Under the pieces are notes generated by a model that saw nothing but the letters and a program-made list of their open reading frames with translations, was not told the origin of the DNA and did not search any database. Shown in pieces: positions 5,563-59,900 of a stretch of DNA of 64,000 nucleotides. Source of the DNA: Deltaproteobacteria bacterium. Lineage in GTDB: Bacteria > Myxococcota > JACPTQ01. The DNA is taken from contig JACPTQ010000072.1 of assembly GCA_016192705.1 (NCBI GenBank), positions 6,611 to 70,610 of the forward strand. The letters run 5' to 3'. Each line of letters begins with the position of its first letter. The first letter of the stretch is position 1. The position numbers and the translations under genes are program-made.

Positions 5563-5564
5563 AC

Positions 5565-6638: not shown

Positions 6639-6665
6639 CCTGCTGAGAATCGGTCGATTCCTATC

Positions 6666-9198: not shown

Positions 9199-9216
9199 GC
9201 GTGGGTTGAATCACAG

Positions 9217-10435
9217 ATGAATCGGATGACGGTGTTGGTTGTTGGGGGCGGCGCTCGCGAGCACGCGCTCGCATGGAAGGTCGCGCAGTCGCCGCTCGCT
9301 GAACGCGTCATTGTTGCGCCCGGAAATGCGGGTTGGGACGACTGTGTCGCGGTATCGCCAACGGACGTTGAAGGCGTCGTTGATCTCGCACGACGCGAGC
9401 ACGTTGCGCTTGTTGTCGTTGGGCCGGAGACGGCACTCGAGGTGGGTCTTGTTGACGGGTTGCGCGAGGCGGGACTCGCGGCGTTCGGGCCGACGCGCGC
9501 GGCGGCGCAAATCGAGACAAGCAAGGCGTTTGCAAAGCGTCTCATGCGCGAGGCGGGAGTGCCGACGGCAGACTTTAATGGAATCGTTGCGCGACGCGGA
9601 AAGGGTCATCGCGACGCACTTCGCGCAATCTGACGCGCCGATTGTCGTTAAGGCGGATCGTTTGATGGCAGGGAAAGGCGTTCAGGTGTGCGGGACCGCA
9701 GATGAAGCGGTCGCATTCGCGGCGACCGTTGGCGGAACGCTTGTCATCGAGCGGTGCGTTCGGGGTGTTGAGGTGTCGCTTCACGTGCTCGTCGATGGCG
9801 CGGTTTGCGCGCCGCTTCCGCTCGCGCGCGATCACAAGCGTCTCTTGGATGGCGATCGTGGTCCAAACACAGGCGGAATGGGCGCGATCGCGCCGGTCCG
9901 GCTGCCAGAGGGCGTTTCCGTTGATGGGCTCATGGACCGATGCGTTCGCCCGATAGCCGTCGCACTCGCTTCGCGCGGCACGCCGTTTCGCGGCGTCATT
10001 TTTGCGGGTCTCATGCTTGATGGCGCGAACCCCACCGTTCTCGAATACAACGCCCGGTTTGGAGACCCCGAAACTGAAGTGCTGATGCCGCTCATTGCGG
10101 ACGATTTTGTTTCGCACCTTCTCGAGCCCGGCCACGCGGCGGTGCGTGTTCACCGTGGAGCGGCCGCTGCTGTTGTGCTGGCCGCGCGAGGATATCCCGC
10201 GGCGCCTGAGACGGGACGGCCGATTGTCGGCCTCGACAGAGTCCCGGACTGTCATCTGTTTCACGCGGGCACGCGGCGAGAGGGATCGCAGGTCGTAACG
10301 AACGGCGGTCGCGTTGTCGTCGTGACGGCGAGAGGGGACGACGTTGCGGAGGCGCGTGCACGCGCGTATCAGGGCGCTCTTCGGATTTCGTTCGACGGCG
10401 CTCAGTTTCGGCGCGACATCGGTGGAGTCGCGTAA
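9217..10435 (+). pseudogene. purD: phosphoribosylamine--glycine ligase (purD) interrupted by a +1 frameshift (single extra G at about 9580/9581)
   Basis: N-terminal 121 aa (MTVLVVGGGAREHALAWK ... VPTADF) are in frame 1. The remainder (ESLRDAERVIATHFAQSDAPIVVKADRLMAGKGV ... PETEVLMPL ... VVTNGGRVVVVTA) continues in frame 2 to 10435. Removing one G in the run aatGGaa restores a colinear PurD of about 405 aa. Confidence 0.8.
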
Positions 10436-13132: not shown

Positions 13133-13199
13133 TGCTTTCGTCCATCAATAAGAACTGGCCGATGTCGCCGCCGTATTCCACGCTTCAGGCTGCGCGGGG

Positions 13200-14390: not shown

Positions 14391-15328
14391 CAGCGTTTCC
14401 CTCGTGCGGGGCCCGGCGCTGGCAGCTTTACGGGAAAAGGCGGCTCAACGCGCGGTGTGACAAGGCCGGGTGGCGCAATTTCGCTGGCGCGTGGGCGGAC
14501 AATGGCGTCACGTCGGAGGAGCGAGGGAATGCGGAGGGGCGTTGGCGCCGCAGCGCCCGCCGGAGAGACCACGGGAGCGGGCGGTGATGCCGTTGGCGCC
14601 GGCAATGAAGGCGCTTTCGTTACGGTCGGCGTTGGGACGCTGGGCGCCGAGGGACCTGGCGACGCTTTAGTCGAAGCCGGACCAAGCGCTGGTGCTGCCG
14701 GTGGCGCTGCTCCCGTTGCGCCGCCAGGTCGAGGCGGTTGGCCCCGCGTTCCGGGAGGTTCCGCCGGAGCGCCCGCGGGTGTTTCGCCGCCACCCTTCAA
14801 GTGAAATGTCGACACAGTGAAGCGGACCTCACGGAAGTTGTTGTCGCCCTTGTAGTCGAGACGCAGTTCACGAATGAGCGCCACCGCCTGGCTGCTTTCC
14901 ACCTCCATCAACAGTTTGACGACCTTGTCGTAGGCGACGTTTGTAAGACGCGCCTCCATGCTGACTTCCTCGACGTCGGTTGGTTTAGCCGGCGTTGGAA
15001 CGGGACGGTCTTTGAGGTCGTCGATGGTGACGCCGATGTTACGTGCGACACCCTCCAAGTATCGCCGCAGCTGCGGCGGTTGGATTCGCAGGATGTTTTC
15101 CCGCTCGCGCAACTTGGCCTGCCTCTTCAAGTAAACGTCGCGCCCGCCATAGAGCGTTTCAAGGTGCGCGCGGTTGGCTTCGAGTCGCCGCTCTCGGGCC
15201 TTGTGTTTCCCCGAAGTGATCTGCCAAGCGAGGGCCGTTCCGCCGACGACGATCACACCGGCCAGCACGACAAGGAGTGCGCGATCGCGCGGCGACAGTC
15301 TCTCAAGTGCTGTAGCAAGCGCCGACAT
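14390..15328 (-). CDS. gspM: type II secretion system protein M-like with Pro-rich C-terminal extension
   Basis: Start MSALATALERL overlaps the gspL stop (TGATG). Single TM (LLVVLAGVIVVGGTALAW), periplasmic domain, then a long Pro/Ala-rich tail. Confidence 0.5.
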   Translation of the reverse strand: MSALATALERLSPRDRALLVVLAGVIVVGGTALAWQITSGKHKARERRLEANRAHLETLYGGRDVYLKRQAKLRERENILRIQPPQLRRYLEGVARNIGVTIDDLKDRPVPTPAKPTDVEEVSMEARLTNVAYDKVVKLLMEVESSQAVALIRELRLDYKGDNNFREVRFTVSTFHLKGGGETPAGAPAEPPGTRGQPPRPGGATGAAPPAAPALGPASTKASPGPSAPSVPTPTVTKAPSLPAPTASPPAPVVSPAGAAAPTPLRIPSLLRRDAIVRPRASEIAPPGLVTPRVEPPFPVKLPAPGPARGKR

Positions 15329-16896
15329 CAACAACCCGGCTCGATCGAAATCCGAAACTGGATGCGATCGCTGATGCCGCTCTTTCGTGACTCCGGTATC
15401 GTGACGCGCGTGAAACACTTGTGCGTTTTCAAGTTTTGCTCCACCTCCGAAAGCTGTTCTTGCGAATCGATCTCCCCGCGAACGTCAATCGACCTGGGCC
15501 CAACGGCAAACGACAAAACGTCCAACTTCACTGGGATTTTCGATTCAGGCCGCGCCCGCGCGTACTTTGCGAAATCACCCCAGTAATCAAGCGCGCTGAC
15601 CTCCGGCATCCGCTGCTCGTCAGATGGTCCGCCGACGCCGAGCTGATTCAGCGCCACACTAAACTCAAAAATCTCCTTTCCAAAAATGACCTTTGTAATT
15701 CGTTTGAGCTCGCCCTTTTGAGCGTCCTCTTTCGCCGAGAGGAGACCGCCGCGCGACACCAGCGAGAAAATGAGCAGCGCGACGAGTGCGATGATCGACG
15801 CGGCGATTCGACCGGCCCGCTCCTTGACGATGTCGAGATTGGCCGTCAAAACGAACTCGTCCTTGCGAAGGTTGATCGGCGGAGTCTTTGAGCCGGTGAC
15901 GCCACGAAGCGCAAGCCCAAGCGCCTTACACGCAAGGTCGCCCACCTCCGCTTCGTGGGGAATCGAGTCGGTGGTTCCCGCGAGTGGCCGAAAACGTTCG
16001 ACGGCCGTGCCAAGCTCATGCGCGAGATGCCCGTCAAGACCACGGATTCGCGACCCACCCCCAACGAGCAAAATCCGCTCGACTTGCGCATTTCCGGCTG
16101 CGTGGTAACTGAGCAACGTGCGCTTGATGTCGAGCGCGAGCGGCGCGACAGCCGACAGCGCGGCTCGGCGCAAAATCGCTTCCGTGTCGGTTAACGTCGC
16201 GCGCTCCTCAATCGACAACGAATCGTGCTTAAGGCCGGCCGCCGATTCCTCGTCAACACCGAGGGCCTTTGCGATGGCGCGCGTCACATGGGCGCCGCCG
16301 CGCGACAGCGTTCGCGTGAAGGCAAAATCCCCGTTTTCGATAATGACGATGTCCGTCGTGAGGTGCCCCACGTCGATAAGGGCAATCGGCTCGGTCGCTC
16401 CGGATAAAGACTGCGACGCCAACGACGCAAACGCGAGCGGAGCAAGGGTGATGACCCGCGGTTCCGCCGGAGTCCCCGCGAAAGGCCGCAGTGTTTCGGC
16501 GATGACTTTCTTCGGGGCGACGACAACGAAAACCTCAGAGCCCTCGCGCCGCGACGTCATTCGGAAGTGATCGAAAACGACATCCGTTATTTCGAATGGG
16601 ACAGCCTCCTCGACTTGGAAGGGAAGGGCGGCTTCTATTTTGCGCGGGTCAACAAACGGGAACTGCAAACGCCGCGTGGAGGCGCGATCACCACGCACGC
16701 CGACCACGACGCCCTCGCCGCCGAGTCGATGGTCCGCGACGATGCGAGCGACGGTTGAGGCGACATCTTCAGAGGCGCCGCCGCGGATGCGTTCTTCATG
16801 AAACGCGACAACCCGATAGCTCCGGAACGTCGCAAGGATCTCGACAACTTTGACTGAGTAACTTCCAACGTCGATCCCAATGAAGCGTTGCGGCAT
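15328..16896 (-). CDS. gspL: type II secretion system protein L (actin-like cytoplasmic domain + TM + periplasmic domain)
   Basis: Start MPQRFIGIDVGSYSVKVVEIL (PilM/GspL actin-like fold), TM segment near aa 370, periplasmic C-terminus. TAATG overlap with the gspK stop. Confidence 0.65.
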   Translation of the reverse strand: MPQRFIGIDVGSYSVKVVEILATFRSYRVVAFHEERIRGGASEDVASTVARIVADHRLGGEGVVVGVRGDRASTRRLQFPFVDPRKIEAALPFQVEEAVPFEITDVVFDHFRMTSRREGSEVFVVVAPKKVIAETLRPFAGTPAEPRVITLAPLAFASLASQSLSGATEPIALIDVGHLTTDIVIIENGDFAFTRTLSRGGAHVTRAIAKALGVDEESAAGLKHDSLSIEERATLTDTEAILRRAALSAVAPLALDIKRTLLSYHAAGNAQVERILLVGGGSRIRGLDGHLAHELGTAVERFRPLAGTTDSIPHEAEVGDLACKALGLALRGVTGSKTPPINLRKDEFVLTANLDIVKERAGRIAASIIALVALLIFSLVSRGGLLSAKEDAQKGELKRITKVIFGKEIFEFSVALNQLGVGGPSDEQRMPEVSALDYWGDFAKYARARPESKIPVKLDVLSFAVGPRSIDVRGEIDSQEQLSEVEQNLKTHKCFTRVTIPESRKSGISDRIQFRISIEPGC

Positions 16897-18170
16897 TACT
16901 CTTCCCTCCAATAGAGCAGTTTCCCGCCAGGCGGGCCGTTGTCGAGGATCGCCGTGACTTTCTTGCGCGTGATTTCTGAGGTGTTCGGCTCGTCGCCCAC
17001 GACCTCAACGACGCGGACCTCAATTCTGAAAACGCGACTCTGCACATCGATGGCACCCAAGAGCGCCGCCTCGTCGAGTGCAATCACCGTCTTGAACGCA
17101 TCAACGAACTCTTGCGCGCCCTTAATGCCGCCCCCAAACAGCGGATCGCGTCGACGCAGATACTCGTTCACCGCTTTCTCAAGAGTTGGATTATTCGGAT
17201 CGAGCAGCCGGTCAAATTTGTCCTTCGCGTACGCGCGAATCAACGTCAAAACGACATCGCGACTCGCCGTTGTAACGTTGACGCGGCCCGCACCGTAGAC
17301 CGTGAAATCGGGCTCGAACACTTCGCGCATCAATTTGTCGCTCATGCCGCGCACGAGATGAAGCTCCTTGATGCTGTCGAACTTTGCGTTTTTCGATTTG
17401 TAAGAATCCCTCAACGATTGATAGTGCGACTCTTCGTAGCCACCGCCGATGCGTTCGGTATCGGTGTCCATCCAATCGACGATCGCCGCCGCAAGGTCCT
17501 CGCGCGTCGTCGTCTGGCCGTCGGGGTCGCGTTCTTGAAAGTACTTTTCCCACTCGGGGCCCTGCAGGCGCGCAAGAACGTGCTGCACGATCGCCTTCGA
17601 TTCCTCGATGGTGCAACATTTATTGAGATTGAATTTTCGGTCTTCGTCGGTGACGGTGCACCGCGCCTGAAACGGAAGCCCGAGGAACCCGACGCTTTTC
17701 GGTTTCTTTTCTTTCGGCGCTTCACCGGATCGTGTCGTTGTTGACGGGGCGCCCGGTGGCCGCGTCGGCGAGCGATCGTCTTTTTTCTTTTCTTCGGGCA
17801 TCGTGAGCGCGCCAAGCCCAATCTCCGCAAGGATTTGGTTGATATTGCCGCCCGACGACAGTGTGCGCAAAAGTTCAGTTCGACAAAAGTCGATCGACGC
17901 GGGGCCTACGTTCAGATTCCAAAGTTGAATGTTCGTTCCGATCTGGCGCTGCATCGGGTCAACGAATGTTTTTTGTGCGTGGAGAAGCGCGCGCATCATG
18001 TTGAACGCCGAATGCGCGATTTGGTTCGCCTGAACGTCGTCGCGGGTGAGCGCGCTGCGATCGATTTTCGCCTGCGTGTTGAACTGGAATTCGTACACCA
18101 TCACGGAAAGAACCGCGAGCACCGTGAGGACCATGAGCAACGCGAATCCGTTTGACGCACGCTTTTTCAA
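16896..18170 (-). CDS. gspK: type II secretion minor pseudopilin GspK
   Basis: 424 aa; N-terminus MKKRASNGFALLMVLTVLAVLSVMVYEF (prepilin-like hydrophobic helix with the conserved E); large periplasmic domain. Start overlaps the gspJ stop. Confidence 0.7.
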   Translation of the reverse strand: MKKRASNGFALLMVLTVLAVLSVMVYEFQFNTQAKIDRSALTRDDVQANQIAHSAFNMMRALLHAQKTFVDPMQRQIGTNIQLWNLNVGPASIDFCRTELLRTLSSGGNINQILAEIGLGALTMPEEKKKDDRSPTRPPGAPSTTTRSGEAPKEKKPKSVGFLGLPFQARCTVTDEDRKFNLNKCCTIEESKAIVQHVLARLQGPEWEKYFQERDPDGQTTTREDLAAAIVDWMDTDTERIGGGYEESHYQSLRDSYKSKNAKFDSIKELHLVRGMSDKLMREVFEPDFTVYGAGRVNVTTASRDVVLTLIRAYAKDKFDRLLDPNNPTLEKAVNEYLRRRDPLFGGGIKGAQEFVDAFKTVIALDEAALLGAIDVQSRVFRIEVRVVEVVGDEPNTSEITRKKVTAILDNGPPGGKLLYWREE

Positions 18171-18886
18171 TATTTCACCGGGTCCTTGTACATCATGACT
18201 TTTGTCTGCGTTGTCAGCGTCAGATCCCGCCCTTGGTCATCGAGAATCGTGACTGAGATTTTGATTCGCTCGGGCAGCCGATCCGGTTGGCCGTCGACCG
18301 ACTCCGTGTCCCAACTGTCTTTCCAGCAATCCTCTTTACAGTCCTTTCCGTCCCAATACCGCAACTCGACCTTCTTCACATTCTCCGCGACCACGTGCGG
18401 AATTCCGCCGCGTTCTGGTTCGTCGTCGAGCCGCCGCGACTCTCGCCGCATGAAGTTGTACAGCCCGAGGTCGCGGCCGCGTCGCTTGTCGTCGGCCTTT
18501 TTCCCACGGCCAGCGCGGAACGATTCACGCTCCCCGAAGTAAGTGATTTCGCACTGATCCGACTCATGACTGTTCTTGTAGAGCCGCATGTGCGAGAGCG
18601 ATGCGAAAACGACCTTCGACACGGGACGTTCGTCCTTCGCCTGAAAAATCGTTTTCACGCGTCGCTCGCCGATCGTCGGAATGTTCCGAGAAAGGTAAGC
18701 CATCGACAGGTCGCGAACCATGCGCGTCATGGCCATTCTCACGCCCTCGTACGAATCGAGCTGGCGTTCGAGCTCCTCTTTGGAGTCAAAGCTCTGCGCG
18801 AATCCGCCCCACACGAGTGTCATCATCATCGCCGTCAGGAACACCGCGAGCAGCGTCTCCGCGAGCGTCATCCCTCGCTGCCTCAT
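18167..18886 (-). CDS. gspJ: type II secretion minor pseudopilin GspJ
   Basis: Internal start MRQRGMTLAETLLAVFLTAMMMTLVWGG overlaps the gspI stop (ATGA); prepilin-type N-terminal helix with E at +5. The upstream ORF-track extension is discarded. Confidence 0.65.
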   Translation of the reverse strand: MRQRGMTLAETLLAVFLTAMMMTLVWGGFAQSFDSKEELERQLDSYEGVRMAMTRMVRDLSMAYLSRNIPTIGERRVKTIFQAKDERPVSKVVFASLSHMRLYKNSHESDQCEITYFGERESFRAGRGKKADDKRRGRDLGLYNFMRRESRRLDDEPERGGIPHVVAENVKKVELRYWDGKDCKEDCWKDSWDTESVDGQPDRLPERIKISVTILDDQGRDLTLTTQTKVMMYKDPVKY

Positions 18887-19608
18887 CTCGCCGCCCCCAC
18901 CGAACCGATGCGCCCGGACGTCGCCGGCACCGCAGCCCCCGACGTCGCCGCGCCCACGAGCCCGGCCGCTGCACCCGCCGCTGCGGGCGTAACCCCCGGA
19001 ATCGCACCCGCCGAAATGCCCGCCGGCAGGCCACCCGGCTTCAAGTTGACGAGGTGCGTGACCAGCGAAAACGACTCCCATTCGCGCGAATCTTTCCCTT
19101 CCCTCCATTTGACGGTGACGCGCAACTCGCGAATCAGCTCCTCGAGTTGCTCTTGAATCATCTGCACGGGCCCCTTGAAATTCGCGAGCATCGCGACGAC
19201 GCTTCCGCGCGCATCGGCCGGCGTCGGCCCGCTCGGCCGCGCTGGATCTGACATCGCCGCAGCAGCGGCCGCTTGGACCTCACCCGCTTTCGCCGCCGTC
19301 GCTTCGAGCATCTGCGAAATCGGCAGTTCAATCCGCTTGAGCGTCCACTCACAGCGATACATCGGCAGGTCGCGGTTACACTCCTCGTCGCCTTCCTTAT
19401 CGAACTCCCCAAAGCCGTCGATCGCAAACTGATGTTCGAGATCGAGCACCTTCGCGCGCGCGACGGCGACCGCGCCGATCGTGTCTTTCGCGATGTTTGC
19501 CCTTGAGAATGTTTGGCTCTGCCCCACCATAATGACGCCCATATTGATGGCCAAAACCGCCAGCGCCACCATTACCTCCAGCAGCGTAAATCCTTCTTCT
19601 CTCCTCAC
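18883..19608 (-). CDS. gspI: type II secretion minor pseudopilin GspI (unusually long, Ala/Pro-rich C-terminus)
   Basis: N-terminus MRREEGFTLLEVMVALAVLAI, a classic type IV prepilin-like leader and helix. 241 aa versus about 120 typical. Confidence 0.65.
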   Translation of the reverse strand: MRREEGFTLLEVMVALAVLAINMGVIMVGQSQTFSRANIAKDTIGAVAVARAKVLDLEHQFAIDGFGEFDKEGDEECNRDLPMYRCEWTLKRIELPISQMLEATAAKAGEVQAAAAAAMSDPARPSGPTPADARGSVVAMLANFKGPVQMIQEQLEELIRELRVTVKWREGKDSREWESFSLVTHLVNLKPGGLPAGISAGAIPGVTPAAAGAAAGLVGAATSGAAVPATSGRIGSVGAAR

Positions 19609-20267
19609 GGGATCGTCTCCTGCGCCTCGGCACCACGCTCACGCTTCTCCTCATCCGGCACTGGAATGAGACCCTGTTCGACGTCGACCCGCCCGAGGTA
19701 GGGGTGAACAATGAGCGTGACGATGTGATCGTCGTCCGAGCTGAGATAAATGTACGCGCGCTCGGCGTAACCAAGCGGAAAGAAACGCAGGACCACCACA
19801 CCTTTTTTAACCATCCCCTCAAACGCTGGAGTCCACGCGCCGTGAATCCGCGTCGGCGCAGGGATCTTGACGTTTTTCTTTTCTGAATCGAGAAGCCCCG
19901 GAAAAGGATCGAAGCCACCGCCGCCGCCCGGGAGGGCTGAACTTCCCGTCCCCTCAGTTCTCTTCTTCTCGTCAAAAATTGTCTCACCATCACGAACGCG
20001 CACGACTTCAGGATCGAGGAGGTCGGCTTCAAGCGATGCGTCGAGGCTGTAGGTTTGCGCATCGAGATCGAGCGTGATTTTAACTTGCGCCGACTGCAGC
20101 GCCGCGGTGTCAAACGCCATGCGAATCGTCCCCGACAAGCGCAACGCCGTCGCGTCAACTTCTGACATATCGATGGCGCGCACGCCGAGCGTTACAACAC
20201 CGAACGCGAGCGACACGATGAGCATCACCGCCATGATCTCAAAAAGTGTAAAGCCGGAGCGCTTCAT
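19605..20267 (-). CDS. gspH: type II secretion minor pseudopilin GspH
   Basis: N-terminus MKRSGFTLFEIMAVMLIVSLAFGV, a prepilin-like leader and helix; position between gspG and gspI. Confidence 0.65.
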   Translation of the reverse strand: MKRSGFTLFEIMAVMLIVSLAFGVVTLGVRAIDMSEVDATALRLSGTIRMAFDTAALQSAQVKITLDLDAQTYSLDASLEADLLDPEVVRVRDGETIFDEKKRTEGTGSSALPGGGGGFDPFPGLLDSEKKNVKIPAPTRIHGAWTPAFEGMVKKGVVVLRFFPLGYAERAYIYLSSDDDHIVTLIVHPYLGRVDVEQGLIPVPDEEKRERGAEAQETIP

Positions 20268-20698
20268 CGCTTGTCCGTTTTTCGCTCCTCAGTGAAGACG
20301 TCGTCGTCCGTGCCGTCGGCCTTATCCGGCCCCTTCGAGTGGATCTCGAATCCGCTCGCATCCGACTTCTTAAGATAAAGATACGGCTGGTCCCACGGGT
20401 CGAGTGGAACTTTGCCGCCCTCGAGATATTTTGACACCTCTTCGAGCGTGTCCGGAAACGACCGGTGCGTCGTGCGATACGTTTTCACCGCGGTGTTGAG
20501 ATTCCCGATCTGAATGCGCGCCGTTCGCACCTCGCCTTCCTTCAGCGCATTCACAACCGCGACGCCGACGACCCCCGCAATGAGCCCGATGATGGCGATG
20601 ACGACCATGATCTCGACAAGCGAAAAGCCTCTTGGCCGCGCTCGCGATAGGGGCCTGTCTGCGTCGTTGCCTTCGTCGCTCGCGCCCTCAACGTACAT
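20264..20698 (-). CDS. gspG: type II secretion major pseudopilin GspG
   Basis: Chosen start MYVEGASDEG... gives a 25-aa leader ending RPRG|FSLVEIMVVIAIIGLIAGVVGVAVV. Strongest pseudopilin signature in the cluster; about 144 aa, as expected for GspG. Confidence 0.8.
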   Translation of the reverse strand: MYVEGASDEGNDADRPLSRARPRGFSLVEIMVVIAIIGLIAGVVGVAVVNALKEGEVRTARIQIGNLNTAVKTYRTTHRSFPDTLEEVSKYLEGGKVPLDPWDQPYLYLKKSDASGFEIHSKGPDKADGTDDDVFTEERKTDKR

Positions 20699-20808
20699 AA
20701 GAGTACGCCTCGGGCTCTCACTCCTCGGCGCCTTGCATCCAGACCCTTCTCGCGAGCCCGGATCCAACTTCATCTCGTTCTCTTCTTTCTCTTCCATCTC
20801 TCTCCTCC

Positions 20809-21952
20809 TCACCGCTTACCGATCGATTGGTTGAGTTTCATGATCGGCAAGACAACCGAAAAAATAATGAACCCCACGACGCCGCCCATCCCCACGATCA
20901 GAATCGGTTCAAGCAGTGACGTCAGCCCCTGAAGCTTCGCGTTCACCTGCGTTTCATAATGGTCCGCAACGTTGACGAGCATCTCCTCAAGCTGCCCGCT
21001 CCGCTCGCCGACGGCGATCATGTGCGTCACCATAGGCGGAAACTGCCCAGACCGCTTGAGAGGCTGCGCGATGCTCTCGCCCTCTTTGATGTTGTTGCGC
21101 GCATCGTCGATGACCGCCTCGAGCACCTTATTGTTCAAAATGTTTTTGACGATGCCGAGCGCCGTCAGCAGTTCGACACCGCTCTTTAGAAGCGTCGCAA
21201 GCGAGCCACCACCAGTCGCGCATGAAGTTCGAGACGCCGATGAGGATTTCCGTGGGCAGCGGTAAGTCGGTTTTGATGTGTTTGAAGATCGACATGAGTC
21301 GCGGCACAAGAACCGTAAACAGCAGCACAACGATGAGGCCGCCCAAAATCATCATGATGATGGGGTAGGTGAGGGCGCCCATCACCTTCGCACGCAGCTT
21401 GACCTGCTCTTCGGTGAAGTTGGCGAGGCGCGTGAGCACGAGATCGAGTGTTCCCGACGATTCGCCCGCGCGAACCATGTTGACGTAAAGCGGCATGAAC
21501 GTCTTGGGGTGGTCGCCAAGCGCGTTCGCGAGCGAGGTCCCTTCGTTGACGCGTTCGCGCACCTGCGCGAGGATCGTTTTGAAAAGTTTGTTGTCGGATT
21601 GATCGACGACAGCCGAAAGGGCCTCGACGAGCGGTAGTCCGGCGCCAAGCAGCGTTGCGAGCTGCCGCGTCATCACGGCGACGTCGCCCGCTGGAACGCG
21701 GCGCCGCTTAAAAGGGACAGAGACCTCGAACTCTTTTTTCGTGAGCGCCGCGAGCAAACCGCCACCCGCACCCGCCGCTCCAGCAGCCGCCCTTGCGCGG
21801 CCGCCGCCCGCACCCGCCGCCTCGGAAACCGCCGTCAAGAAAACGCCGTCCTTGCGCAGCACCTGCCTTAGCGCGCGCGCCGACTCAGCATCGCGCACCC
21901 CGGCGATCGCCTTTCCCTTTTCCGTCAACCCTTTGTATTCAAAAACTGGCAT
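20809..21952 (-). pseudogene. gspF: type II secretion inner-membrane protein GspF, disrupted by internal deletion of about 130 bp plus frameshift (or an assembly error)
   Basis: N-terminal 250 aa (MPVFEYKGLTEKGKAIAG ... LIGVSNFMRDWWWL) read in one frame and terminate at 21128. The C-terminal 134 aa (ATLLKSGVELLTALGIV ... FPPMVTHMIAVGERSGQLEEML ... LPIMKLNQSIG) are in another frame, 20809-21215. Compared with GspF/EpsF, about 45 aa (second TM segment and loop) are missing at the junction near 21205-21215, next to a tggtggtgg repeat. Confidence 0.75.
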
Positions 21953-22030
21953 TCAGTTCTTCTCAGTGTCTTCCTCTGTACCTTTGTGTCTCTGTGGTTG
22001 CATTTTCTTCTTCTTGTTCTTCTCTTCTGC

Positions 22031-23776
22031 CTACGCAACATCCTCCTGCGTCACGCGCATCACCTCCGAAATCGTCGTCACCCCCTGAACGACCTTGAGC
22101 AGCCCGTCGTCGCGCAGCGTCCGCATTCCACGCTGGATGGCGAGCTTCTTGATGGTGTTCGAGTCGAGCTTTCGCCGTGTCATGTCGCGCACGTCGTCGT
22201 CGATCATCATGAGTTCGTAAATCCCGACGCGCCCCACGTACCCGGAGTTAAGGCAAGCGGGGCAGCCTTTCTCACGAAACACCGTGAGCCCGGCGCTTTG
22301 ATTGGGATCGAGCCCAAGCTCGACGAGCTCCGCTTCGCTCGGCTGATACGGAACGCGGCACGCTTTGCACACGACGCGCACGAGGCGCTGCGCCAAGACC
22401 GCGAGAAGCGACGACGACAACAAGAACGGTTCAACGCCCATATCGATGAGTCGCGTGAGCGCCCCTGGCGCATCGTTCGTGTGAACCGTTGAAAAGACGA
22501 GGTGCCCCGTGAGCGACGCCTGAATCGCAATCTCCGCTGTCTCAAGGTCGCGGATTTCGCCGACCATGATGACATCCGGGTCGTGGCGTAAAATCGATCG
22601 AAGGCCCCCCGCAAAAGTGAGCTCAATTTTTGGGTTCACTTGGATTTGACTGACGCCCTGCAGCTGATACTCGACCGGGTCCTCGACCGTGATGATCATC
22701 TGGTCCTTCGTGTTGATTTTCGCGAGACACGCATAGAGCGTCGTCGTTTTCCCGCTGCCCGTCGGTCCCGTGACAAGCAGAATTCCGTGCGCGCGCTGGA
22801 TGAGTTCCTGCATCACCTTGTAATTGTCTTCCTGGAAACCGAGCGACGATAAATCGACGAGCACCGCCGACCGGTCGAGGAGGCGCATCGTGATTCGTTC
22901 GCCGTGCGACGTTGGCGCCGTCGCGACGCGAATGTCGATGTCTTTCCCCGCGAGTTTTATCCGAATGCGTCCGTCCTGGGGGAGCCGCTTCTCGGCGATG
23001 TTGAGCCCCGCCATGATCTTCACGCGCGACGAGATCGACGCGTGGTATCGCTTCGCGGGGCGCATGATCTCTTTCAACACGCCGTCAACGCGAAACCGCA
23101 CCGAGATGTCGCGCTCCATCGGCTCGATGTGAATGTCGCTCGCGCGGTCTTTCACCGATTGAAAAAGGAGCGAATTCACGAGGCGAATGATCGGCGCCTC
23201 TTCGTCAACGTCGAGAAGGTCTTGCGGTTCTTCGAGCTCGTGCGCGATGTTTTGGAGGTCGGCCCCTTCAAGATCGTCCATCGCCGCGTCGGTAACGCCA
23301 CTCTTCCGATCGAACACGCGGTTGATGGCGTCGAGGATCGTCTGGCCGGCCGCGAGAACCGGGCGCACCTCACGCCCCAAAATCGCGCACAAATCATCGA
23401 GTGGCGCCGTGTCGACCGGGTCCGCGCACGCAACCTCCACCGCTTCATCGACCCAACGCAACGGCAAAACGCGGTACTGTTTCGCATAGTTGATGGGGAT
23501 CGGCCCGACGACCTCCGTTTGAATCGCCTCGGCCGCGATCGCCTCGACAACCGGCAAGTCAAACTGCAGGCCGAGCGCATGGACGACGTCGGCCTCCGTC
23601 ACGGCCTTCATCCCAACGAGCAACTCGCCGAGTCGCCCCCCACGCTCACGCTGCAACGCGAGGGCTTCGTCGATTCGCGCGACCGTCGTTCGCCCGTGTG
23701 CAACCAGAATCTCGCCGAGCGGGCGCCCGACCCAACTTCGTTCCGCGCCCATCGCTCCAACCCGCATCGGCCTCAC
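22031..23776 (-). CDS. gspE: type II secretion ATPase GspE
   Basis: 581 aa; N1 domain, Walker A LVTGPTGSGKTTTLYA, Asp box, His box, and tetracysteine zinc motif CKACR...GCPACLNSGY. Start overlaps the gspD stop. Confidence 0.9.
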   Translation of the reverse strand: MRPMRVGAMGAERSWVGRPLGEILVAHGRTTVARIDEALALQRERGGRLGELLVGMKAVTEADVVHALGLQFDLPVVEAIAAEAIQTEVVGPIPINYAKQYRVLPLRWVDEAVEVACADPVDTAPLDDLCAILGREVRPVLAAGQTILDAINRVFDRKSGVTDAAMDDLEGADLQNIAHELEEPQDLLDVDEEAPIIRLVNSLLFQSVKDRASDIHIEPMERDISVRFRVDGVLKEIMRPAKRYHASISSRVKIMAGLNIAEKRLPQDGRIRIKLAGKDIDIRVATAPTSHGERITMRLLDRSAVLVDLSSLGFQEDNYKVMQELIQRAHGILLVTGPTGSGKTTTLYACLAKINTKDQMIITVEDPVEYQLQGVSQIQVNPKIELTFAGGLRSILRHDPDVIMVGEIRDLETAEIAIQASLTGHLVFSTVHTNDAPGALTRLIDMGVEPFLLSSSLLAVLAQRLVRVVCKACRVPYQPSEAELVELGLDPNQSAGLTVFREKGCPACLNSGYVGRVGIYELMMIDDDVRDMTRRKLDSNTIKKLAIQRGMRTLRDDGLLKVVQGVTTISEVMRVTQEDVA

Positions 23777-26553
23777 TCCTCCCCATCATCGGTGACCACG
23801 AAACCTTCGCGCACCGGCGGGTCGGCCTTCGGATCGGGAACGCCCTTCGTTTCGCCGCCCTTCACGGGTTTGCCGTCCGGCCCAAGCAGCGGCGCTGGGC
23901 CCTTCTTCTTCTTTTTCTTCCCCTTCAGTTCGTCGCGCTTGTCTTGGGCCTCCTTCGCCTCCTTGTCCATCCGCTCCTGGTCGCGAATCGCCTCCTCGAA
24001 CTTCCCGCCGTACTGATTCACCTCTTCGAGCGGCCCGTGTTTTTTCCCGTAGTCGACCGTGAACGGCGAATCGATCCCAGCCTTCGAGAATTTTTCTAAA
24101 AACTCTTGCCGCTCCTGCATTTTCTTCTCGAAGATGCGTCTAAAATCCTGCGGCGTTCGAATGATGTGGGGCGTCAGGAAGATGAGAAGATTGGTCTTCG
24201 CCATCCGATTGTTCTTCTTGCGAAAGAAGAACCCGAGCACAGGGATGTCGCCGAGAATCGGGATTTTCGACGACCCCTCCGAAACGATGTTCTTCATGAG
24301 CCCGCCCACGACGATCGTGCTCCCGTCTTTCACGATCACCGTCGTCTTGACCGTCCGCTTCGTCGTCTTCGGTTGATTCGTCGTCGGCTCGACTGCACCG
24401 AGCTCCGAGATTTCGTTGTTGACGTCCATCGTAACGTACGACGATTCGTTGATCCGCGGCTTGATGCTCAGTTTCAGCGACACGTCTTCGCGGGTGACGC
24501 TCGTCGTAAGGAGTCCCGGCAGTCCTCCGGCGGCTCCGGCGAGCGCGCCGAGACTCGTCGTTGCGCCGCTGATGAACGGCACTTTTTCGCCGACCGTGAG
24601 CTCCGCGTCTTTGTTGTCGGTCGCGAGGATGTGCGGCGTCGACAAGACGTTCGTGTCCTGGTTCGACTGGAGAAACTGCAAAAACGCACCGAACGATGGA
24701 ATCCCGGTGCCGAGGCTAAACGTGCCGGTGGTGCTCGTCGTTGTTGTTGACGAGCCGAGCGCGCCGGTTGTTCCTGGGACGTCGGGTCCGCGCAGAATGG
24801 CGCCGAATCCCGTGAGCGCCGCCGGCGTCAAGAACAGCGTGTCGGCCGGATTGTTCCCAAACATGAGCGGAACGGTCTGCCCATTGACGCTGAAACCCTT
24901 GCCGCCAGTAAACGAAACTTTCTGGTCCTTTTGGCGGTCGATCGCGACCTCCATGATAACCGTCTCAACAAAAACCTGGTTCCGCCGCATGTCGAGTTTC
25001 GCGATGATGTCTTTGAGCGCGCGGTAATCTTTTTCGGTGCCGATGATAATGAGCGAGTTCGTCGCCTTGTCGGCCGTGATCTTGAGCTCGCCCTCGAACA
25101 GGCTGGCGCCGGCAGCCGCCCCTTTTGCGCCCGGCGCTGTTGGCGGCCTCGGACCTGTTTTTGCGCTTCCGGCCGCGAGACTCGCGAGAACGGTCGCCAT
25201 CTCCTCGGCCTCGGCGTTTTCGAGGTAATGAACGCGCACGCGTCCTTCGCCACCCGGGAGCGGAATGTCGAGCTCTTTGATGAGTTGCACAACTTTGCTG
25301 TACGCACGGTCTTGCGCAACGATGATCAGCATGTTGGTGCGTTCATCGGAAATGATTTTCGACACGCGAACATCCTCGTCGGCCTCGGGCGGCAACATCG
25401 CGGGCGTCGTTCCGGGTGTTGGCGGAGGTTGTGGAGCCGGTGGCGGCGGCGGACGACCGGGCGTTGGCGGTGCGTGGGGCGTGACCGGTTGCGCCTGACC
25501 GCGCGGTTTTTTCCCAGACTTGTCGCCAAACAGCTCGTTCAGTTTCGACGCGATGTCGCTCGCCGTTGCGTGCTTGATCTTGCGCAAGAAGATCCGCTCG
25601 CGCCCACCGGTCGGCACGTCAAGCCGTTCGATAATCTTCAAGATGCGTCGAATGTTCGCCGCGGTGTCAGACAGAATCAACGTGTTCGTTGGAGCGTACG
25701 GCGTCAAGTCGGAGCCGCGGCCCTTCAACTTATTGATAACGTTTTGAATCTCGGCGAGCTCGACGTGCTTGACCGGGATAAGCCGCGTCAGGAAGCGGTC
25801 GTCGTCGGGCACCGGTTCCTTGTCGGGCAGCGTCGTGATCGGCATTTGATTCGCGTCGCGCTGCTCGACAAGCTTCAAGTAGTTTCCCGACGGCACGACG
25901 GTGAGTCCGTTCACCTCGAGCGCCGAAAGGAACGCCTTCCACGCCTCACCGATACGAACTTTGCGCGGCGAGAATATTGAAATCTTTCGGCCTTTGACCT
26001 TCTCAGTCAGGATGAAGTTCTTGCCGGTAAGGTCTGAAATCCACTTAACAACCGCCTCGAGATCCTCTTTCGGCAAATCGAAGCTGAACGCGACGTTCTT
26101 CGGGAATTTTGGGTTGTGCTTAATGTTCTTTGGGTAGTCGGTTTCTGGCAGCGGCCCGCCTGACGACGGCGCGGGGATTGGCGGTCCACCGGCCTTGGCG
26201 TCGCCGGGCTTTTTCGCAGGCACTGCGGTTGTTGCGGCCGCTTTCGCATCGCCCTTGCCGGGCCGTGGCGTAAGGCTCCCAGGTTTCTTCAAATCTTTTG
26301 GTGGAACGAGCGGAATAACAGGATCTTTTTTCCTTGTCGCCTCGAGCACGGGCGCTGCCTTCTTCTTAAAACGCTTCCGTGGCCGCGCCGGTTCTTCATC
26401 CTGCGCCTGTGCTGAAATTGAAAAAGCGAGGACGGGGAGTAACCACAGAGGCGCTGAGATTCGGAGATTGGAGGAGGCTGAAAACCTCTTTCTCTTCCGA
26501 CCTCTCTCACTCTGCGTCTCTGTGGTTTCTCTTCTATCTTCCATCTCTCTCAT
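23773..26553 (-). CDS. gspD: type II secretion secretin GspD with long Lys/Pro-rich N-terminal extension
   Basis: Start taken at MREMEDRR... (ATG 5 nt after an AAGGTGG SD that sits 11 nt after the upstream stop). Signal peptide ...LWLLPVLAFSISAQA|QDEE, N0-N3 domains, and C-terminal secretin domain (VPILGDIPVLGFFFRKKNNRMAKTNLLIFLTPHII). The ORF-track N-terminal 33 aa overlap the upstream PDZ coding sequence and are discarded. Confidence 0.85.
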   Translation of the reverse strand: MREMEDRRETTETQSERGRKRKRFSASSNLRISAPLWLLPVLAFSISAQAQDEEPARPRKRFKKKAAPVLEATRKKDPVIPLVPPKDLKKPGSLTPRPGKGDAKAAATTAVPAKKPGDAKAGGPPIPAPSSGGPLPETDYPKNIKHNPKFPKNVAFSFDLPKEDLEAVVKWISDLTGKNFILTEKVKGRKISIFSPRKVRIGEAWKAFLSALEVNGLTVVPSGNYLKLVEQRDANQMPITTLPDKEPVPDDDRFLTRLIPVKHVELAEIQNVINKLKGRGSDLTPYAPTNTLILSDTAANIRRILKIIERLDVPTGGRERIFLRKIKHATASDIASKLNELFGDKSGKKPRGQAQPVTPHAPPTPGRPPPPPAPQPPPTPGTTPAMLPPEADEDVRVSKIISDERTNMLIIVAQDRAYSKVVQLIKELDIPLPGGEGRVRVHYLENAEAEEMATVLASLAAGSAKTGPRPPTAPGAKGAAAGASLFEGELKITADKATNSLIIIGTEKDYRALKDIIAKLDMRRNQVFVETVIMEVAIDRQKDQKVSFTGGKGFSVNGQTVPLMFGNNPADTLFLTPAALTGFGAILRGPDVPGTTGALGSSTTTTSTTGTFSLGTGIPSFGAFLQFLQSNQDTNVLSTPHILATDNKDAELTVGEKVPFISGATTSLGALAGAAGGLPGLLTTSVTREDVSLKLSIKPRINESSYVTMDVNNEISELGAVEPTTNQPKTTKRTVKTTVIVKDGSTIVVGGLMKNIVSEGSSKIPILGDIPVLGFFFRKKNNRMAKTNLLIFLTPHIIRTPQDFRRIFEKKMQERQEFLEKFSKAGIDSPFTVDYGKKHGPLEEVNQYGGKFEEAIRDQERMDKEAKEAQDKRDELKGKKKKKKGPAPLLGPDGKPVKGGETKGVPDPKADPPVREGFVVTDDGEE

Positions 26554-26702
26554 CACACCCACCTTCACTGGATCTGGTAGTTCAACTTCTTTTTCGTGCC
26601 ACCGCCCGAAAGTTCGATCTGAATTGAGCTCGCATCCTTGAGCCGCCGCCACGCGTCGAACGCCTTGTCGGGGCTATCGATGTCCTCGCCGTTTATTCGT
26701 CG
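26384..26702. repeat. direct repeat copy 1 (about 320 bp, about 95% identical to copy 2): PDZ 3' half + 11-nt SD-containing intergenic + signal-peptide coding 5' end
   Basis: Aligned by eye with 26956-27274. Period 572 bp. Lower-identity paralogy continues on both sides. Confidence 0.85.
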
Positions 26703-27125
26703 AATCACGTCGCCGCTTTTGATTCCAAGCTTCGAAAAAAGACTCTCCGGCCGAACGCTAAACACTTTGATACCCACGGTTTTAGCCCTTTCAAAATAGA
26801 GGGCGACTCGCGGGCACGGCGTGAGTTGGCCCTCTTTGGAGGGTTCGGAAAGCAACTCCTGCCGGGAGATAACGAGATTGGCTTGCGAATCGTTTCGGAT
26901 GGTCTTACGGGATAACGTTTTTGGCAGATGTTTCTTTTGATCTTGTTTTCTCGGTCGCGCCGGTTCTTCATCCTGCGCCTGCGCCGAAAACGAAAAAGCC
27001 AGGACGGGGAGTAACCACAGAGGCCCTGAGATTCGGAGATTGGAGGAGGCTGAAAACCTCTTTCTCTTCCGACCTCTCTCACTCTGCGTCTCTGTGGTTT
27101 CTCTTCTATCTTCCATCTCTCTCAT
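26565..27125 (-). CDS. chimeric GspC-like PDZ protein carrying the GspD-type cleavable signal peptide (predicted soluble periplasmic PDZ paralogue)
   Basis: Start MREMEDRR... with the same SD and spacing as gspD. Signal peptide LWLLPVLAFSFSAQA|QDEEPARPRK is nearly identical to the GspD N-terminus. It is followed by a short linker and a PDZ domain whose C-terminal half (GDVIRRINGEDIDSPDKAFDAWRRLKDASSIQIELSGGGTKKKLNYQIQ) is nearly identical to the GspC C-terminus. No TM anchor or HR domain. Confidence 0.6.
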   Translation of the reverse strand: MREMEDRRETTETQSERGRKRKRFSASSNLRISGPLWLLPVLAFSFSAQAQDEEPARPRKQDQKKHLPKTLSRKTIRNDSQANLVISRQELLSEPSKEGQLTPCPRVALYFERAKTVGIKVFSVRPESLFSKLGIKSGDVIRRINGEDIDSPDKAFDAWRRLKDASSIQIELSGGGTKKKLNYQIQ

Positions 27126-27274
27126 CACTTCCACCTTCACTGGATCTGGTAGTTCAACTTCTTCTTCGTGCCGCCGCGCGAAAGTTCGATCTGAATTGAG
27201 CTCGCATCCTTGAGCCGCCGCCACGCGTCGAACGCCTTGTCGGGGCTATCGATGTCCTCGCCGTTTATTCGCTG
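26956..27274. repeat. direct repeat copy 2 of the gspC-3'/gspD-5' junction segment
   Basis: Partner of 26384-26702. Confidence 0.85.
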
Positions 27275-28102
27275 AATGACGTCTCCGTTCGTGATGCCGA
27301 TCTTCGAATAGAGGCTTCCCGGCCTGATGCTAAACAACTTGAACCCCGCGCCCTTACCCCCTTCAAAGTGCGGGACAATTCGGGCTTCCGTCGCGAGCTG
27401 GTTTAGGTTCGAGAGCCGATTCTGAACCTCCTGACGCGTGATGACGTAATCGCTGTCTGAAAGTTTTTTGATGTTCTTGTCGTCGACGGCGGTTGGTGTC
27501 CCTTCGCTCGCCGAAATCGTTGGCGGCGACGCGGCCGCTCGTGCCGCGCGCGCGCGTTTTGCCTCGTCGTCCATCGCTTCGAGTTTTTCGCGCTTGCCTC
27601 CCTGCTCAAGAATCACAGTGGGTCGCGGCCACCGATCGATTTCAACGATGGTCCACCCCTGAATGGCGCTTCCCATTCGATACAGCTCCGCTTCGGCGTT
27701 TGGAGCGGCTTTGTCTCGAATCGCCGCGAACGACCACGCAGGATTTTGCGCGACGATGGTGCCGACCAACTCCGCGTTCAGCTTGCTGTCTTGAACGTCG
27801 CCTTCCTTTTGTGGCACCAGCGCCGAACCCGCATCGGGCGGTGCTGTCGCGGCTTCGTACGAGTAACTCGAATTGAAAATGTTCGTCTTCAGGAGAGGCA
27901 TCGGATCTTTGCGGACATTTCGCGGCGCGGAAACAACGGGCAGCGGTGCCGGAGGATCGCCCGAAGCTGGCGCCACCGTGAGTGCGCGTTCGATCCAGCT
28001 CGATGCGCCCCAGGAACCGACGAGGGCGCCGAGCGAAACGACGCCGACGTTGACAACCCAAAAGTAGCGCTTAAGAACGGTTTGAAGGGTGGGCAGAGCC
28101 AT
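27137..28102 (-). CDS. gspC: type II secretion protein GspC (TM anchor, HR domain, PDZ domain)
   Basis: 321 aa; N-terminal TM (YFWVVNVGVVSLGALVGSW), Pro-rich linker, HR-like region (LVGTIVAQNPAWSFAAIRD...YRMGSAIQGWTIVEIDRWPRPTVILEQGGKREKLE), and C-terminal PDZ (FKLFSIRPGSLYSKIGITNGDVIQRINGEDIDSPDKAFDAWRRL). First gene of the gsp operon. Confidence 0.7.
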   Translation of the reverse strand: MALPTLQTVLKRYFWVVNVGVVSLGALVGSWGASSWIERALTVAPASGDPPAPLPVVSAPRNVRKDPMPLLKTNIFNSSYSYEAATAPPDAGSALVPQKEGDVQDSKLNAELVGTIVAQNPAWSFAAIRDKAAPNAEAELYRMGSAIQGWTIVEIDRWPRPTVILEQGGKREKLEAMDDEAKRARAARAAASPPTISASEGTPTAVDDKNIKKLSDSDYVITRQEVQNRLSNLNQLATEARIVPHFEGGKGAGFKLFSIRPGSLYSKIGITNGDVIQRINGEDIDSPDKAFDAWRRLKDASSIQIELSRGGTKKKLNYQIQ

Positions 28103-28277: not shown

Positions 28278-31200
28278 CTAAGGAATCCGTTTCACGAAGA
28301 CGGCCGTATTGTTCGAGCATCTCGCCGCTTCAAAGCGCCCCGCGGGAACTCTCTTGCGGTAAACGCCCCATGGATGGTTATCCGACGCGCGATAGATCGT
28401 CCCCACCTTCGTCCAACCGCCGCCTGGAGGCTGACACTTGGTGTGGTCGTACGCATCGGTGTGATAAACGATCGCCGGCTCAGTGAGCGTAAAGACTGGC
28501 GGAACCCCGGAGCCACCCTGAATGAGAACGCTCCCCTCCATTTCCGGGAGCAGATTCTTTATCGGCTCAAGGTTGGAGCGGTAAATAAACTGCCTGCCCA
28601 CCGGATTCTCATGCGGCCCCGCAATCGCCGGCACCACGTCTCGGACGAGTCGGGAAGCGAATCCTGACGGCCACCCCGCTCGCTGCGCCGTGACGCCGTA
28701 CTTAAACTCGCTGAGGTTCGGCTTTTGCGCTTGTTGAAGGTTCGAGAATCTCCCCTCGAGCGAGTTCGCGGAAACCGTGAGCCGGTACCACTGCCACCAG
28801 CCGGGGCTGACCCGACGGAGCTCCAAGACCCGCGTGGCCGGGTCGAAGCTCACCGAGTCGATATTCTCGCGCCCAGCGCCCCCAAAGCGCAGGTCGAGTT
28901 GATACCCGGATCCGGCTCGCGCGATCTCGAGATCGAACCTGTGGTTGTTCGCGTTGCCTTGCCACTTACCCGCGGGGTCGACGACGGGACTCTGGGATGT
29001 CGCGGCAGGCCCTTGTGCCGCCGCACCCGCCGCCTTGACCGCGTCCTCCGCAGCCACGCTGGTGCATTTGACGACGGCGCCGAAGGTTGCGCCCACGTTT
29101 CGCGTGAGGTTGTTCTCACAGCAGTCGGACGCCTTTCTGACGAACGTGTCGCGTCCGGCGCTCGCGACCTTACCGATGGCCGACTTCAGGTCGCTCACCC
29201 CCGGAACACCGCGCATTCGCGCGTCGCCAAAAAACGCATCGACCGCTTTGAGTCCGTCGTCGGCTGACGAAATCGTTCGGTTCAACGCCTTTCGGTACTC
29301 GGAGCACGCAAAGACCTTGAGCGCCTCGCCCGCCGCGGCGTTCAGTGACTCCGCGAGGCACTCGGTCGCATTCTTGAGCATGCCGCTGAAATTGGCGCTC
29401 CCGCCACAGCTCGGCTTGCACTTGGGGTTCGACTCGAGTTCGTTCGCGAACGTCGAAAACCCAGTGTCGGTGAGCGTCGCGACCTTGTCGCGCAAGTCTT
29501 TCGGGAATCCGAGCTTCACGGCGCTCGCAAGCTTTTCGATGTTATCGACGACCGCACCTTTGAGCGTTCCCGAGCGCGCCTCATTCGCGATCCAGCGCAC
29601 AGTGCCGTCGTACGCTGCCGCCGCGAGCGCCGTCCCCGCGCACGATCCGGCCTGGCTCACGAGCGCGCCCCAATCGACGTTCGCCCCGATGTTGAGCTTC
29701 GAGCCGTCGGCGCCGATGCAGCTCTCGAGGCACTGTGACATCGCCGGAATCCCGTACCGTCCGATGTTCGCTCCCACGCCCTTCAGCATGTCTGGCAGGT
29801 TGACGCTTCCCGCGCCCCCGAAGTTAAGCGAAAAATTGAGCCCCGCGTTCTCGAAGAAGCCAGCGAGATTCGCAAACTGCAACCGGAACGTCTCGCCTTC
29901 GCCGCGGGCGGCATCGACGACCTTCATAAGCGCTTCTTTGACGAGCGCGTTTCGGCCAACAATGAGCGCGCTCTCGGCTTCTCGCCTTAGGCACGCGACG
30001 ACGCCGGTCACGAACCGGTCGAACGCGCCCCTCCAATCGTTCCCTTCGAACGCGAGATTTACGCACGCCGCGCGGATCTGAAGGCCGAACTTCTCGACCG
30101 CGGCGCCCGAAGCTTTATCAAGCATTGCGGCCACATTGAAGTCGCCCGGAATCGCCCGACCGAGCGCGCCGAAGAGCGAACTGAGGCCGCCTTTAATTGC
30201 GCCAAAACCAAGACCAGAAAAGGCATCCAGCGCGCCCGCCGCAAGGCCGATTTGTGCCCCAACGCCGAGGCAATTGAAGAGGTTCTCAAGGAACTTTTTG
30301 ATCCCTTCACCCTTGCCAATGTCGCGTGTGACGCTTGAGCAGACCTGACCCACGAATCGTCCAAACACGGCCGCGCCGGCGTCGAGCCCACTCTTCAAGA
30401 GCTCGTCGAGTTTCCCGGGGAGTGCGGGAAACGAAAGCTTAAATCCGCCGAACGAACCCACGAACGCGCCCCAAGCCGCGTCGAGGCCGGACTTCGAGGT
30501 TGCGCCCTTCGCGATTTCAGCGACGGCGCTGACGATGGTCGACTCCTGGAGTGCGTTCAACGCGACGGGTCCGATGCAATCAAAGACCTCCTTCGCGAGT
30601 GCCGCGACGTCGCCACCTTTGAGCTGCTTGTTGCCGCAACTTAGCCGAAGCTCAACGCCAAATCGCCTGCCACTTTCCGTCGCAATCTTGCCCGCGAACG
30701 TCATCAGGTCGGGCGGCATTCCGAGTCCCCACGCGCCAAAGACGTCTCCGAGAAACTTGATCCCGTCGCCGAATCGGTTGGATTCCTTCTCGGCGAAATC
30801 GGCAAGCCTTTGGACCGCGGCCAAGATGAGATCGCCCGGCCCATACTCCTTCTGCTCCGTGATCGCCCCGAGCTTGCGAGCCGCGTCGCGCAGCTTGTCG
30901 AGCGGGATGACCGCGCCGACACCTTTGCAAAGCGCCTTGAGCGGTTCGCTGAGAACCGGTCGAAGGGCGTCGAACGACTGGTTCAAGAGCGGCTTCAGGA
31001 CGAAGTTGCGCACGAGTTCCTTGGCGCCTGGAATGCGGATGTTCACGACCGGGATCGCGGTGCCGTCGAATACAAAGTCGCTGACCTTTTCCGCGATGAG
31101 CGGCGCAAGGAAGGTATCGTGAAGCGCGTTAAGCGCAAAATGAGACAGAACCCCGGCGACCGGGCCGAGAAGGGCGCCGACGCCACCGAGCGTCGCACCT

Positions 31201-36365: not shown

Positions 36366-36375
36366 AAGTCGGAAA

Positions 36376-37137: not shown

Positions 37138-37139
37138 GA

Positions 37140-46930: not shown

Positions 46931-46946
46931 CTGCCGCGCAAACGTT

Positions 46947-59034: not shown

Positions 59035-59900
59035 CTACCTCGGGGTTGCTGGAGCAACCGGCGCGGGCGTCGCAGGCACCACGGTTGTCGGTGCCGTCTT
59101 CGGCGCGATGCGGCGCCTGCGGCCGCGTGCGACAAAAATCGCCGGATAGCGATCGAGGGCCGCTTCGTCGGCGCGGAAGATGAAGCCGGCGGCGGCGCGG
59201 ATCGTGTCGACGCCATAGCGCGCGTAAGTGGCGGCGCGGTCGCGAAGGTCGCGCGATTCGGTGGGGCTCGGGCTCCGTTCCGTCGCCCTCCCCATTTTCG
59301 CCGCGCGCTCAGCCCACTGGGTTTCGCGCCATTGCGGCGAAAATTTCGTCACTTCGCGGTCGTCCGACTTTGCGGCGAGAGCGTTCACGAGCTTCACCGA
59401 GATGTTTTGCGCCTGCGTGACGTCGGCTTCCGTGATTTCGGAGCGACACTTTGCGCCACTCCAGTTCGCCGAGAAGAGGCCGGCGAGCGCAGCCAAATCG
59501 TCGGCGGTGTCGAGGTGTCCTTGTCCCTCGCGGATAAGGTCGAGCTGCGGCGGTAAAGGAGGTCCGCTTGCCAAAGTGCTTGCGCGCGAACGACGAGGTT
59601 GTCGTGCGCGGCCGGGTCGAACGCGGCGGCGGCAAACGTCGCGACGAAGCGAGCGCGGTCGGCGGCGCAGCTTTGCGCGTTCTGGATGATCGCCGCGACG
59701 GCCTCGGGGACCTGCGCGCGAAACGGTGTCACGGCGTGCGCGGGGATCGCGTCGAACGTCGCGCGGAGCTTCGCGAGCGCCTCATCGCCGCCAGAAAGGG
59801 TGATCGCATCGGTTGCGGCGTGCGTCGCCTGCTCGGTCGTTTCGTTTGTCTTCGTTATCTCGTTCCCCTCGTGCGAATTGGCGGCCTCAATCAACCCCAA
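59035..59900 (-). CDS. hypothetical protein(s): two overlapping minus-strand ORFs (59394-59900 and 59035-59574), possibly one gene of about 290 aa with a frameshift
   Basis: Both ORFs are Ala-rich with no recognised domain and overlap by 181 bp in different frames. Which is real cannot be decided from sequence alone. Confidence 0.25.

Follow-up and report, generated by a model that had tools for sequence, protein, structure and literature searches.

The window, which is the whole 64-kb stretch of DNA analysed here (GC = 0.610), belongs to a 71.7-kb scaffold of the NCBI metagenome-assembled genome (MAG) 'Deltaproteobacteria bacterium' with the locus tag prefix HYY84 (He et al. 2021). The organism, whose lineage is Myxococcota-like, comes from agricultural groundwater at Modesto, California. 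A T2SS operon was found in the window with its genes in the order gspC-D-E-F-G-H-I-J-K-L-like, all on the same strand (Table 1). The gspF gene adjoins gspE and gspG and lies where a gspF is expected in a gsp operon, with gspC, gspD and gspE upstream of it and gspG to gspK and a gspL-like gene downstream. None of the downstream genes from gspG to the PilM/GspL-like gene is interrupted. Only gspF is broken in this otherwise complete operon, as it is read on the minus strand in two different frames, namely a 274-aa ORF at 21128-21952 and a C-terminal part at 20809-21201.

Table 1. Features of the gsp operon and of the other broken genes in the window, with the evidence for each.
Feature	Position	Strand	Basis
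gspC, delta-type, full length	27137..28102	-	NF041515 (GspC_delta), 282 bits (cut-off 150), profile 1-311/311
gspD secretin, full length	23773..26652	-	TIGR02517, 516 bits (cut-off 351), profile 2-599/600
gspE, full length	22031..23776	-	TIGR02533, 712 bits (cut-off 630), profile 4-486/486
gspF codons 1-250, authentic N-terminal part	21203..21952	-	tblastn with P0001 residues 1-250, 100% identity
gspF deletion junction, 149 bp absent (gspF nt 750-898)	21203..21204	-	base-by-base comparison with L001; confirmed with L002-L004
Out-of-frame tail of the N-terminal ORF, 24 residues (ACDASKERCRTADGARHRQKHFEQ) and TAA stop	21128..21202	-	
gspF codons 301-430 and stop (second T2SSF domain, TM3)	20809..21201	-	tblastn with P0001 residues 300-430
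Downstream T2SS genes	15328..20797	-	gene calls in L001/L004, NCBIfam, 100% DNA identity
gspG	20264-20797	-	
gspH-like	19605-20267	-	
gspI-like	18883-19572	-	
gspJ-like	18167-18886	-	
gspK	16896-18134	-	
PilM/GspL-like gene	15328-16896	-	
purD (GARS), 5-bp deletion CGTCG (+ strand) between 9578 and 9579	9217..10435	+	comparison with L091
Hypothetical gene, two frames (59394-59900 and 59035-59574)	59035..59900	-	coding-frame plot, homologues

The N-terminal ORF begins with an ATG; after its authentic part, which ends in ...SNFMRDWWWL (GVSNFMRDWWWL), come 24 unrelated residues and then the stop. Codons 1-250 span T2SSF_N, the first T2SSF domain, TM1 and the periplasmic loop, and end with WWWL, the four residues that open TM2. 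The region of the out-of-frame tail encodes GspF residues 301-325 when it is read in the correct frame. The C-terminal part, as translated from 20809..21201, reads LATLLKSGVELLTAL...NQSIGKR and ends at the stop codon. One complete PF00482 (T2SSF) domain was found by Pfam in each fragment, covering profile positions 2-125 and 5-125 of 125 respectively, and the first of them occupies residues 95-217 of the N-terminal ORF. Both T2SSF domains of a GspF are therefore present in the window copy. The three-TM layout with TM2 between the two domains is lost, as only the WWWL of TM2 is left, and the split into two frames is at odds with TIGR02120, which describes a single polypeptide from end to end. 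The claim of the earlier note that two conserved GspF parts lie in different frames is thus borne out.

Several further features were observed in and around the upstream genes of the operon. GspE carries at residues 19-70 an N-terminal MshEN-like c-di-GMP-binding motif (NF053729; 47.6 bits, cut-off 38), and this motif suggests that the secretion system may be under c-di-GMP control. A diverged tandem duplication with a period of 572 bp (26381-26795 and 26953-27367; 90% identity over 415 bp) covers the 3' end of gspC, the intergenic region and the 5' end of gspD. It creates a chimeric 219-aa ORF (26565-27224, minus strand) in which the first ~93 residues match the GspD leader/N-terminus and the C-terminus is a GspC-like PDZ domain. 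Two tandem gspC copies are found in a related genome (L007), and the duplication in the window may be natural and yield an additional PDZ protein, or it may stem from variant contigs that were joined. Directly upstream of gspC and on the same strand lies an ORF of 2,323 aa (28278-35249, minus strand) with an N-terminal signal-like sequence, which could be a candidate T2SS substrate or accessory giant protein.

The two conserved parts of the window gspF were joined and used as a query against 5.8 billion proteins. A single near-identical protein was returned (P0001, 430 aa) and all the other matches have at most 54% identity, so that no second near-identical GspF exists among the proteins searched. 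P0001 is identical to both of the window parts and has extra residues in between. It is encoded on Logan contigs from three single-run assemblies (SRR12113390, -385 and -422), and a contig from a fourth run (-428) likewise crosses the junction site. All four are assemblies of groundwater metagenomes from Modesto, California, and the matching runs (SRR121133xx-34xx) form the Modesto agricultural groundwater series of He et al. 2021. The four contigs (L001-L004) match the window with 100% DNA identity on either side of a single 149-bp gap. A genuine pseudogene would be expected to have its lesion reproduced in independent data of the same organism, and here four such assemblies were found to be intact.

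The intact protein matches the GspF equivalog model TIGR02120 over its whole length (483 bits, cut-off 424, profile 1-401/401). The segment that is absent from the window is present in all seven aligned homologues, whose named members include the GspF of Vulgatibacter and of Myxococcaceae, and it is also retained in all 80 fetched GTDB loci, whose matches cover at least residues 1-422. The 274-aa product of the deletion allele, for which the query was clean and had an ATG start, has no record in the exact-product look-up. No record was returned either for the C-terminal ORF products of 173, 109 and 105 aa, although these look-ups may be invalid as the queries have GTG/TTG starts and may have been translated with V or L instead of M. 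GspC (321 aa) and the product of ORF 57732-58622 also have no record in the exact look-ups. The best GspF match among the GTDB species representatives has 59% identity, and the species is accordingly not represented there. A 26-mer scan of the JGI metagenome contigs gave five matches, all of them distant homologues with the conserved SNFMRDWWWL coding motif, and the species is absent from these contigs too. The 26-nt stretch encoding NFMRDWWWL is exactly conserved in the gspF of lineages that are otherwise ~65-70% identical (L086-L090, from JGI/ENA), and it marks the beginning of TM2 as a patch of unusual nucleotide conservation.

Comparison with the intact allele gives the exact extent of the lesion. 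The deletion had been put at about 130 bp with about 45 residues missing and the join at about 21205-21215; alignment to the intact allele with identical flanks revises these figures to 149 bp, to 49 whole codons (251-299) plus one nucleotide on either side (codon 250, third position; codon 300, first position), and to a junction exactly between 21204 and 21203. The junction sequence on the minus strand is GGTGGCT/CGCTTGCG, and the deletion shifts the reading frame of gspF. The peptide lost, MFGGALVLVWGLKRYFASEAGRLVWDRVVLTLPIFGKLVRMVAIARFTR, comprises the greater part of TM2, the linker and the helix that opens the second cytoplasmic domain, in agreement with the earlier description of the missing stretch as the second TM helix and the following loop.

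A link between the join and a tggtggtgg micro-repeat had also been drawn, and the junction does not uphold it. The TGGTGGTGG run stops 4 nt short of the junction, the distal end has nothing that corresponds to it, and the comparison with L001 shows 0 bp of microhomology and no flanking repeat. Since there is no matching distal repeat and no microhomology, the micro-repeat does not explain the deletion, and slippage at this run was rejected, given its distance of 4 nt from the junction and the lack of shared sequence at the distal end. A de Bruijn repeat collapse would need a k-mer of at least 20 bases common to the two ends; no shared sequence of 20 bp or more is present, which excludes such a collapse and also replication slippage. 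Two other candidates were rejected. Hairpin-mediated deletion is not supported, as the intact 189-nt region folds no better than its shuffles (z = +0.8), and a translocation or inversion of the 149 bp is contradicted by the lack of a copy elsewhere within the 64-kb window. The earlier note had also proposed looking for a second gspF or pilC paralogue in the genome; this search covered the 64-kb window, in which tblastn returned internal-duplication cross-matches and no paralogue.

A total of fourteen Logan contigs from six runs could be compared with 29,959 bp of the window (intervals 173-6378, 6521-22690, 35549-39859 and 44702-47973). No substitutions were found over these 29,959 bp, which include the whole of gspF outside the gap, whereas two deletions were found, one in gspF and one in purD, and both break the reading frame. 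Within 15491-22690 the window is the same as the independent contigs except for the gspF gap. The extra substitutions or decay that relaxed selection would leave in gspF or its operon were not seen in the DNA compared. The earlier suggestion of a rewired T2SS finds no support, as the other operon genes are full length and are identical to the independent contigs wherever these overlap. Across the six runs, all from one aquifer site, the ~30 kb compared between 173 and 47973 are 100% identical, a sign that the population there is highly clonal.

The second lesion splits purD, the purine-synthesis gene for phosphoribosylamine-glycine ligase, into two ORFs in the window (9217-9633 and 9239-10435). 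An intact purD of 404 aa with the GARS_N, GARS_A and GARS_C domains is found on an independent contig (L091), and the 5-bp gap is the only difference over the 8.9 kb of this one contig. There is no repeat or homopolymer at the gap.

The third lesion was flagged by a codon-usage frame plot, which showed a same-strand frame switch near 59.55 kb within the hypothetical gene. About 37 residues are absent at ~59541-59555, as judged from paralogues in the same MAG and not from an allele. A homologue search with the joined pieces returned four proteins. MBI3074191.1 (HYY84_18950; 168 aa, on a 71,701-bp contig) is identical to the upstream piece, and a 283-aa paralogue in the same MAG, HYY84_12555, spans both pieces, as do two further homologues. 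A second paralogue, HYY84_00460, has the identical length (283 aa) and falls in the same 90% cluster as HYY84_12555. The paralogues lack an in-frame insertion of 29 residues (FSPQWRETQWAERAAKMGRATERSPSPTES) that the downstream piece contains. Three other loci were considered as split genes and rejected for lack of frameshift evidence, namely accD/amine oxidase (37-39 kb), where the independent contigs show two separate genes, smpB (43.6-44.8 kb) and a deacetylase (49-50.7 kb). The scaffold therefore carries lesions similar to that of gspF in purD, as seen against L091, and in the hypothetical gene, as seen against its paralogues.

The contigs of He et al. 2021 were assembled with MEGAHIT and then passed through the IDBA-UD v1.1.3 scaffolder, and the assembly methods mention no step for the correction of local errors (PMC7906910). 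The pipeline thus includes a step, IDBA-UD scaffolding, that is able to join contigs without a verified overlap. Local assembly errors have been documented by the same laboratory, with thirteen of them counted in a genome of 1.13 Mb, and through them broken genes spread into databases (Chen et al. 2020; PMC7111523). For most candidate Deltaproteobacteria MAGs of the site, the data suggest a coverage in the low teens.

Taken with these observations, the gspF break is best explained as a collapsed scaffold join or a local assembly error, with the gspF and the T2SS of the organism intact, a reading to which we give a probability of roughly 0.83. It is favoured because gspF with identical flanks is intact in four independent assemblies, because on the same scaffold at least two further deletions break a reading frame and substitutions are absent, and because the source pipeline has a scaffolding step known for local errors. 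We infer that at three sites in the window two contigs were joined without any bases in between, so that 5 bp of purD, 149 bp of gspF and ~110 nt of the hypothetical gene would have been dropped. A scaffold gap estimated as zero or negative is one possible route to such joins, and the removal of gap Ns afterwards is another. Either route would produce clean deletions without microhomology, N runs or accompanying substitutions, and the error would have arisen in a low-coverage metagenome-assembled genome. At a negative estimated distance the IDBA scaffolder may cut back the following contig and leave the overlap unchecked, a behaviour that serves here as a lead. Blind joining of contigs fits all the three lesions, the 0 bp of microhomology and the absence of N runs. 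Neither non-ACGT bases or N runs nor exact short-range tandem duplications were observed in the window, and the companion signatures that scaffold errors may leave at other joins (N runs, spurious duplications) are accordingly missing. Their absence counts against a noisy scaffolder, which might leave such traces. Of the options raised in the earlier note, the assembly or consensus error is the one that the intact alleles, the further lesions and the scaffolding step favour.

A genuine and very recent 149-bp deletion, for instance through end-joining repair of a double-strand break, is an unlikely alternative by which a clone or subpopulation would have lost gspF function, the MAG would represent this variant and its T2SS would be non-functional. 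The lesion is present in the deposited sequence, and the sample behind the MAG could have been dominated by a deletion variant. A very recent mutation would likewise leave the flanks 100% identical, and a junction with zero microhomology is compatible with repair of the NHEJ type, which is encoded by many Myxococcota. Four independent read sets yield the intact allele, however, and the absence of any record of the 274-aa product is a clean negative, although the look-ups of the C-terminal ORFs may carry no weight. The two further frame-breaking deletions on the scaffold, including that in purD, also speak against it when set beside 0 substitutions in 30 kb. In natural divergence, substitutions outnumber indels severalfold, and three mid-size, repeat-independent, frame-breaking deletions accompanied by no substitutions in 30 kb would be very unusual as a product of natural mutation. 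A free-living bacterium that occurs together with its intact clone would not plausibly show such a spectrum of mutations or such a density of pseudogenes, and several filters from the same site yielded the intact clone. An inactivated gspF with a non-functional T2SS, as the earlier note had allowed, is not supported.

If the clean deletions of 5, ~110 and 149 bp were all real, the MAG would represent a clone after a burst of end-joining-type deletion mutagenesis with an intact sister clone persisting, which we regard as improbable. Such a clone would have lost T2SS secretion and purine synthesis and would be a candidate secretion-null, auxotrophic 'cheater'. Taken by itself, a real gspF deletion would be nothing more than an ordinary loss of function in a well-known gene.

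Far less probable is a mixture in which both alleles were present in the sample and the assembler took the path of a minority deletion allele. Metagenome populations are heterogeneous, and the Logan contigs of this organism do break often (1.5-9 kb), but those of four runs cross the gspF site without a break at a bubble. A graph assembler would also require read-supported k-mers at the junction, and the same coincidence would be needed for purD and for the third lesion. The last alternative, a functional split GspF in which the halves act as separate single-domain proteins in analogy to the platform proteins TadB/TadC, is scarcely credible even though each half keeps a complete T2SSF domain and, without TM2, could keep its native topology (N-in, one TM, C-out), since in the start-codon survey the C-terminal part lacks a usable start codon or Shine-Dalgarno at its 5' end and the first in-frame starts downstream of the junction fall inside the second T2SSF domain, the deleted segment is retained in the homologues and GTDB loci described above, and the intact allele is identical outside the gap, which leaves no time for adaptation to a split protein.

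Both the gene family and the class of artefact are known ones. The intact allele has the same two T2SSF domains as GspF/EpsF/XcpS (TIGR02120; two PF00482 domains and PF28597), the inner-membrane platform of the T2SS, and structures of GspF/EpsF cytoplasmic domains (2VMA, 3C1Q and 5NBG) match its residues 81-193. The window copy differs from this family in the absence of nt 750-898, the frameshift and the lack of a single ORF. PilC, the platform protein of the type IVa pilus (Myxococcus xanthus, 3jc8_Ca), is homologous over residues 86-424 (E = 3e-81) and shares the layout of two domains and three TM. It differs in that the NCBIfam PilC models score below their cut-off (333-363 bits against 700) on the intact allele and the operon context is gsp and not pil. 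The lesions resemble the local errors described by Chen et al. 2020 (PMC7111523) in that the consensus is not reproduced independently, several occur on one scaffold and genes are broken, although that class is defined by a lack of read support whereas the present case is judged from assembled contigs.

As a rough rate, collapsed joins would account for at least three broken genes per 64 kb in a public MAG built with MEGAHIT and scaffolded with IDBA-UD, and this bears on pseudogene counts and metabolic reconstructions made from the He et al. 2021 data set. A reader of the HYY84 MAG would conclude that the T2SS and purine synthesis have been lost in this organism; the independent assemblies indicate that gspF and purD are both intact in the population.
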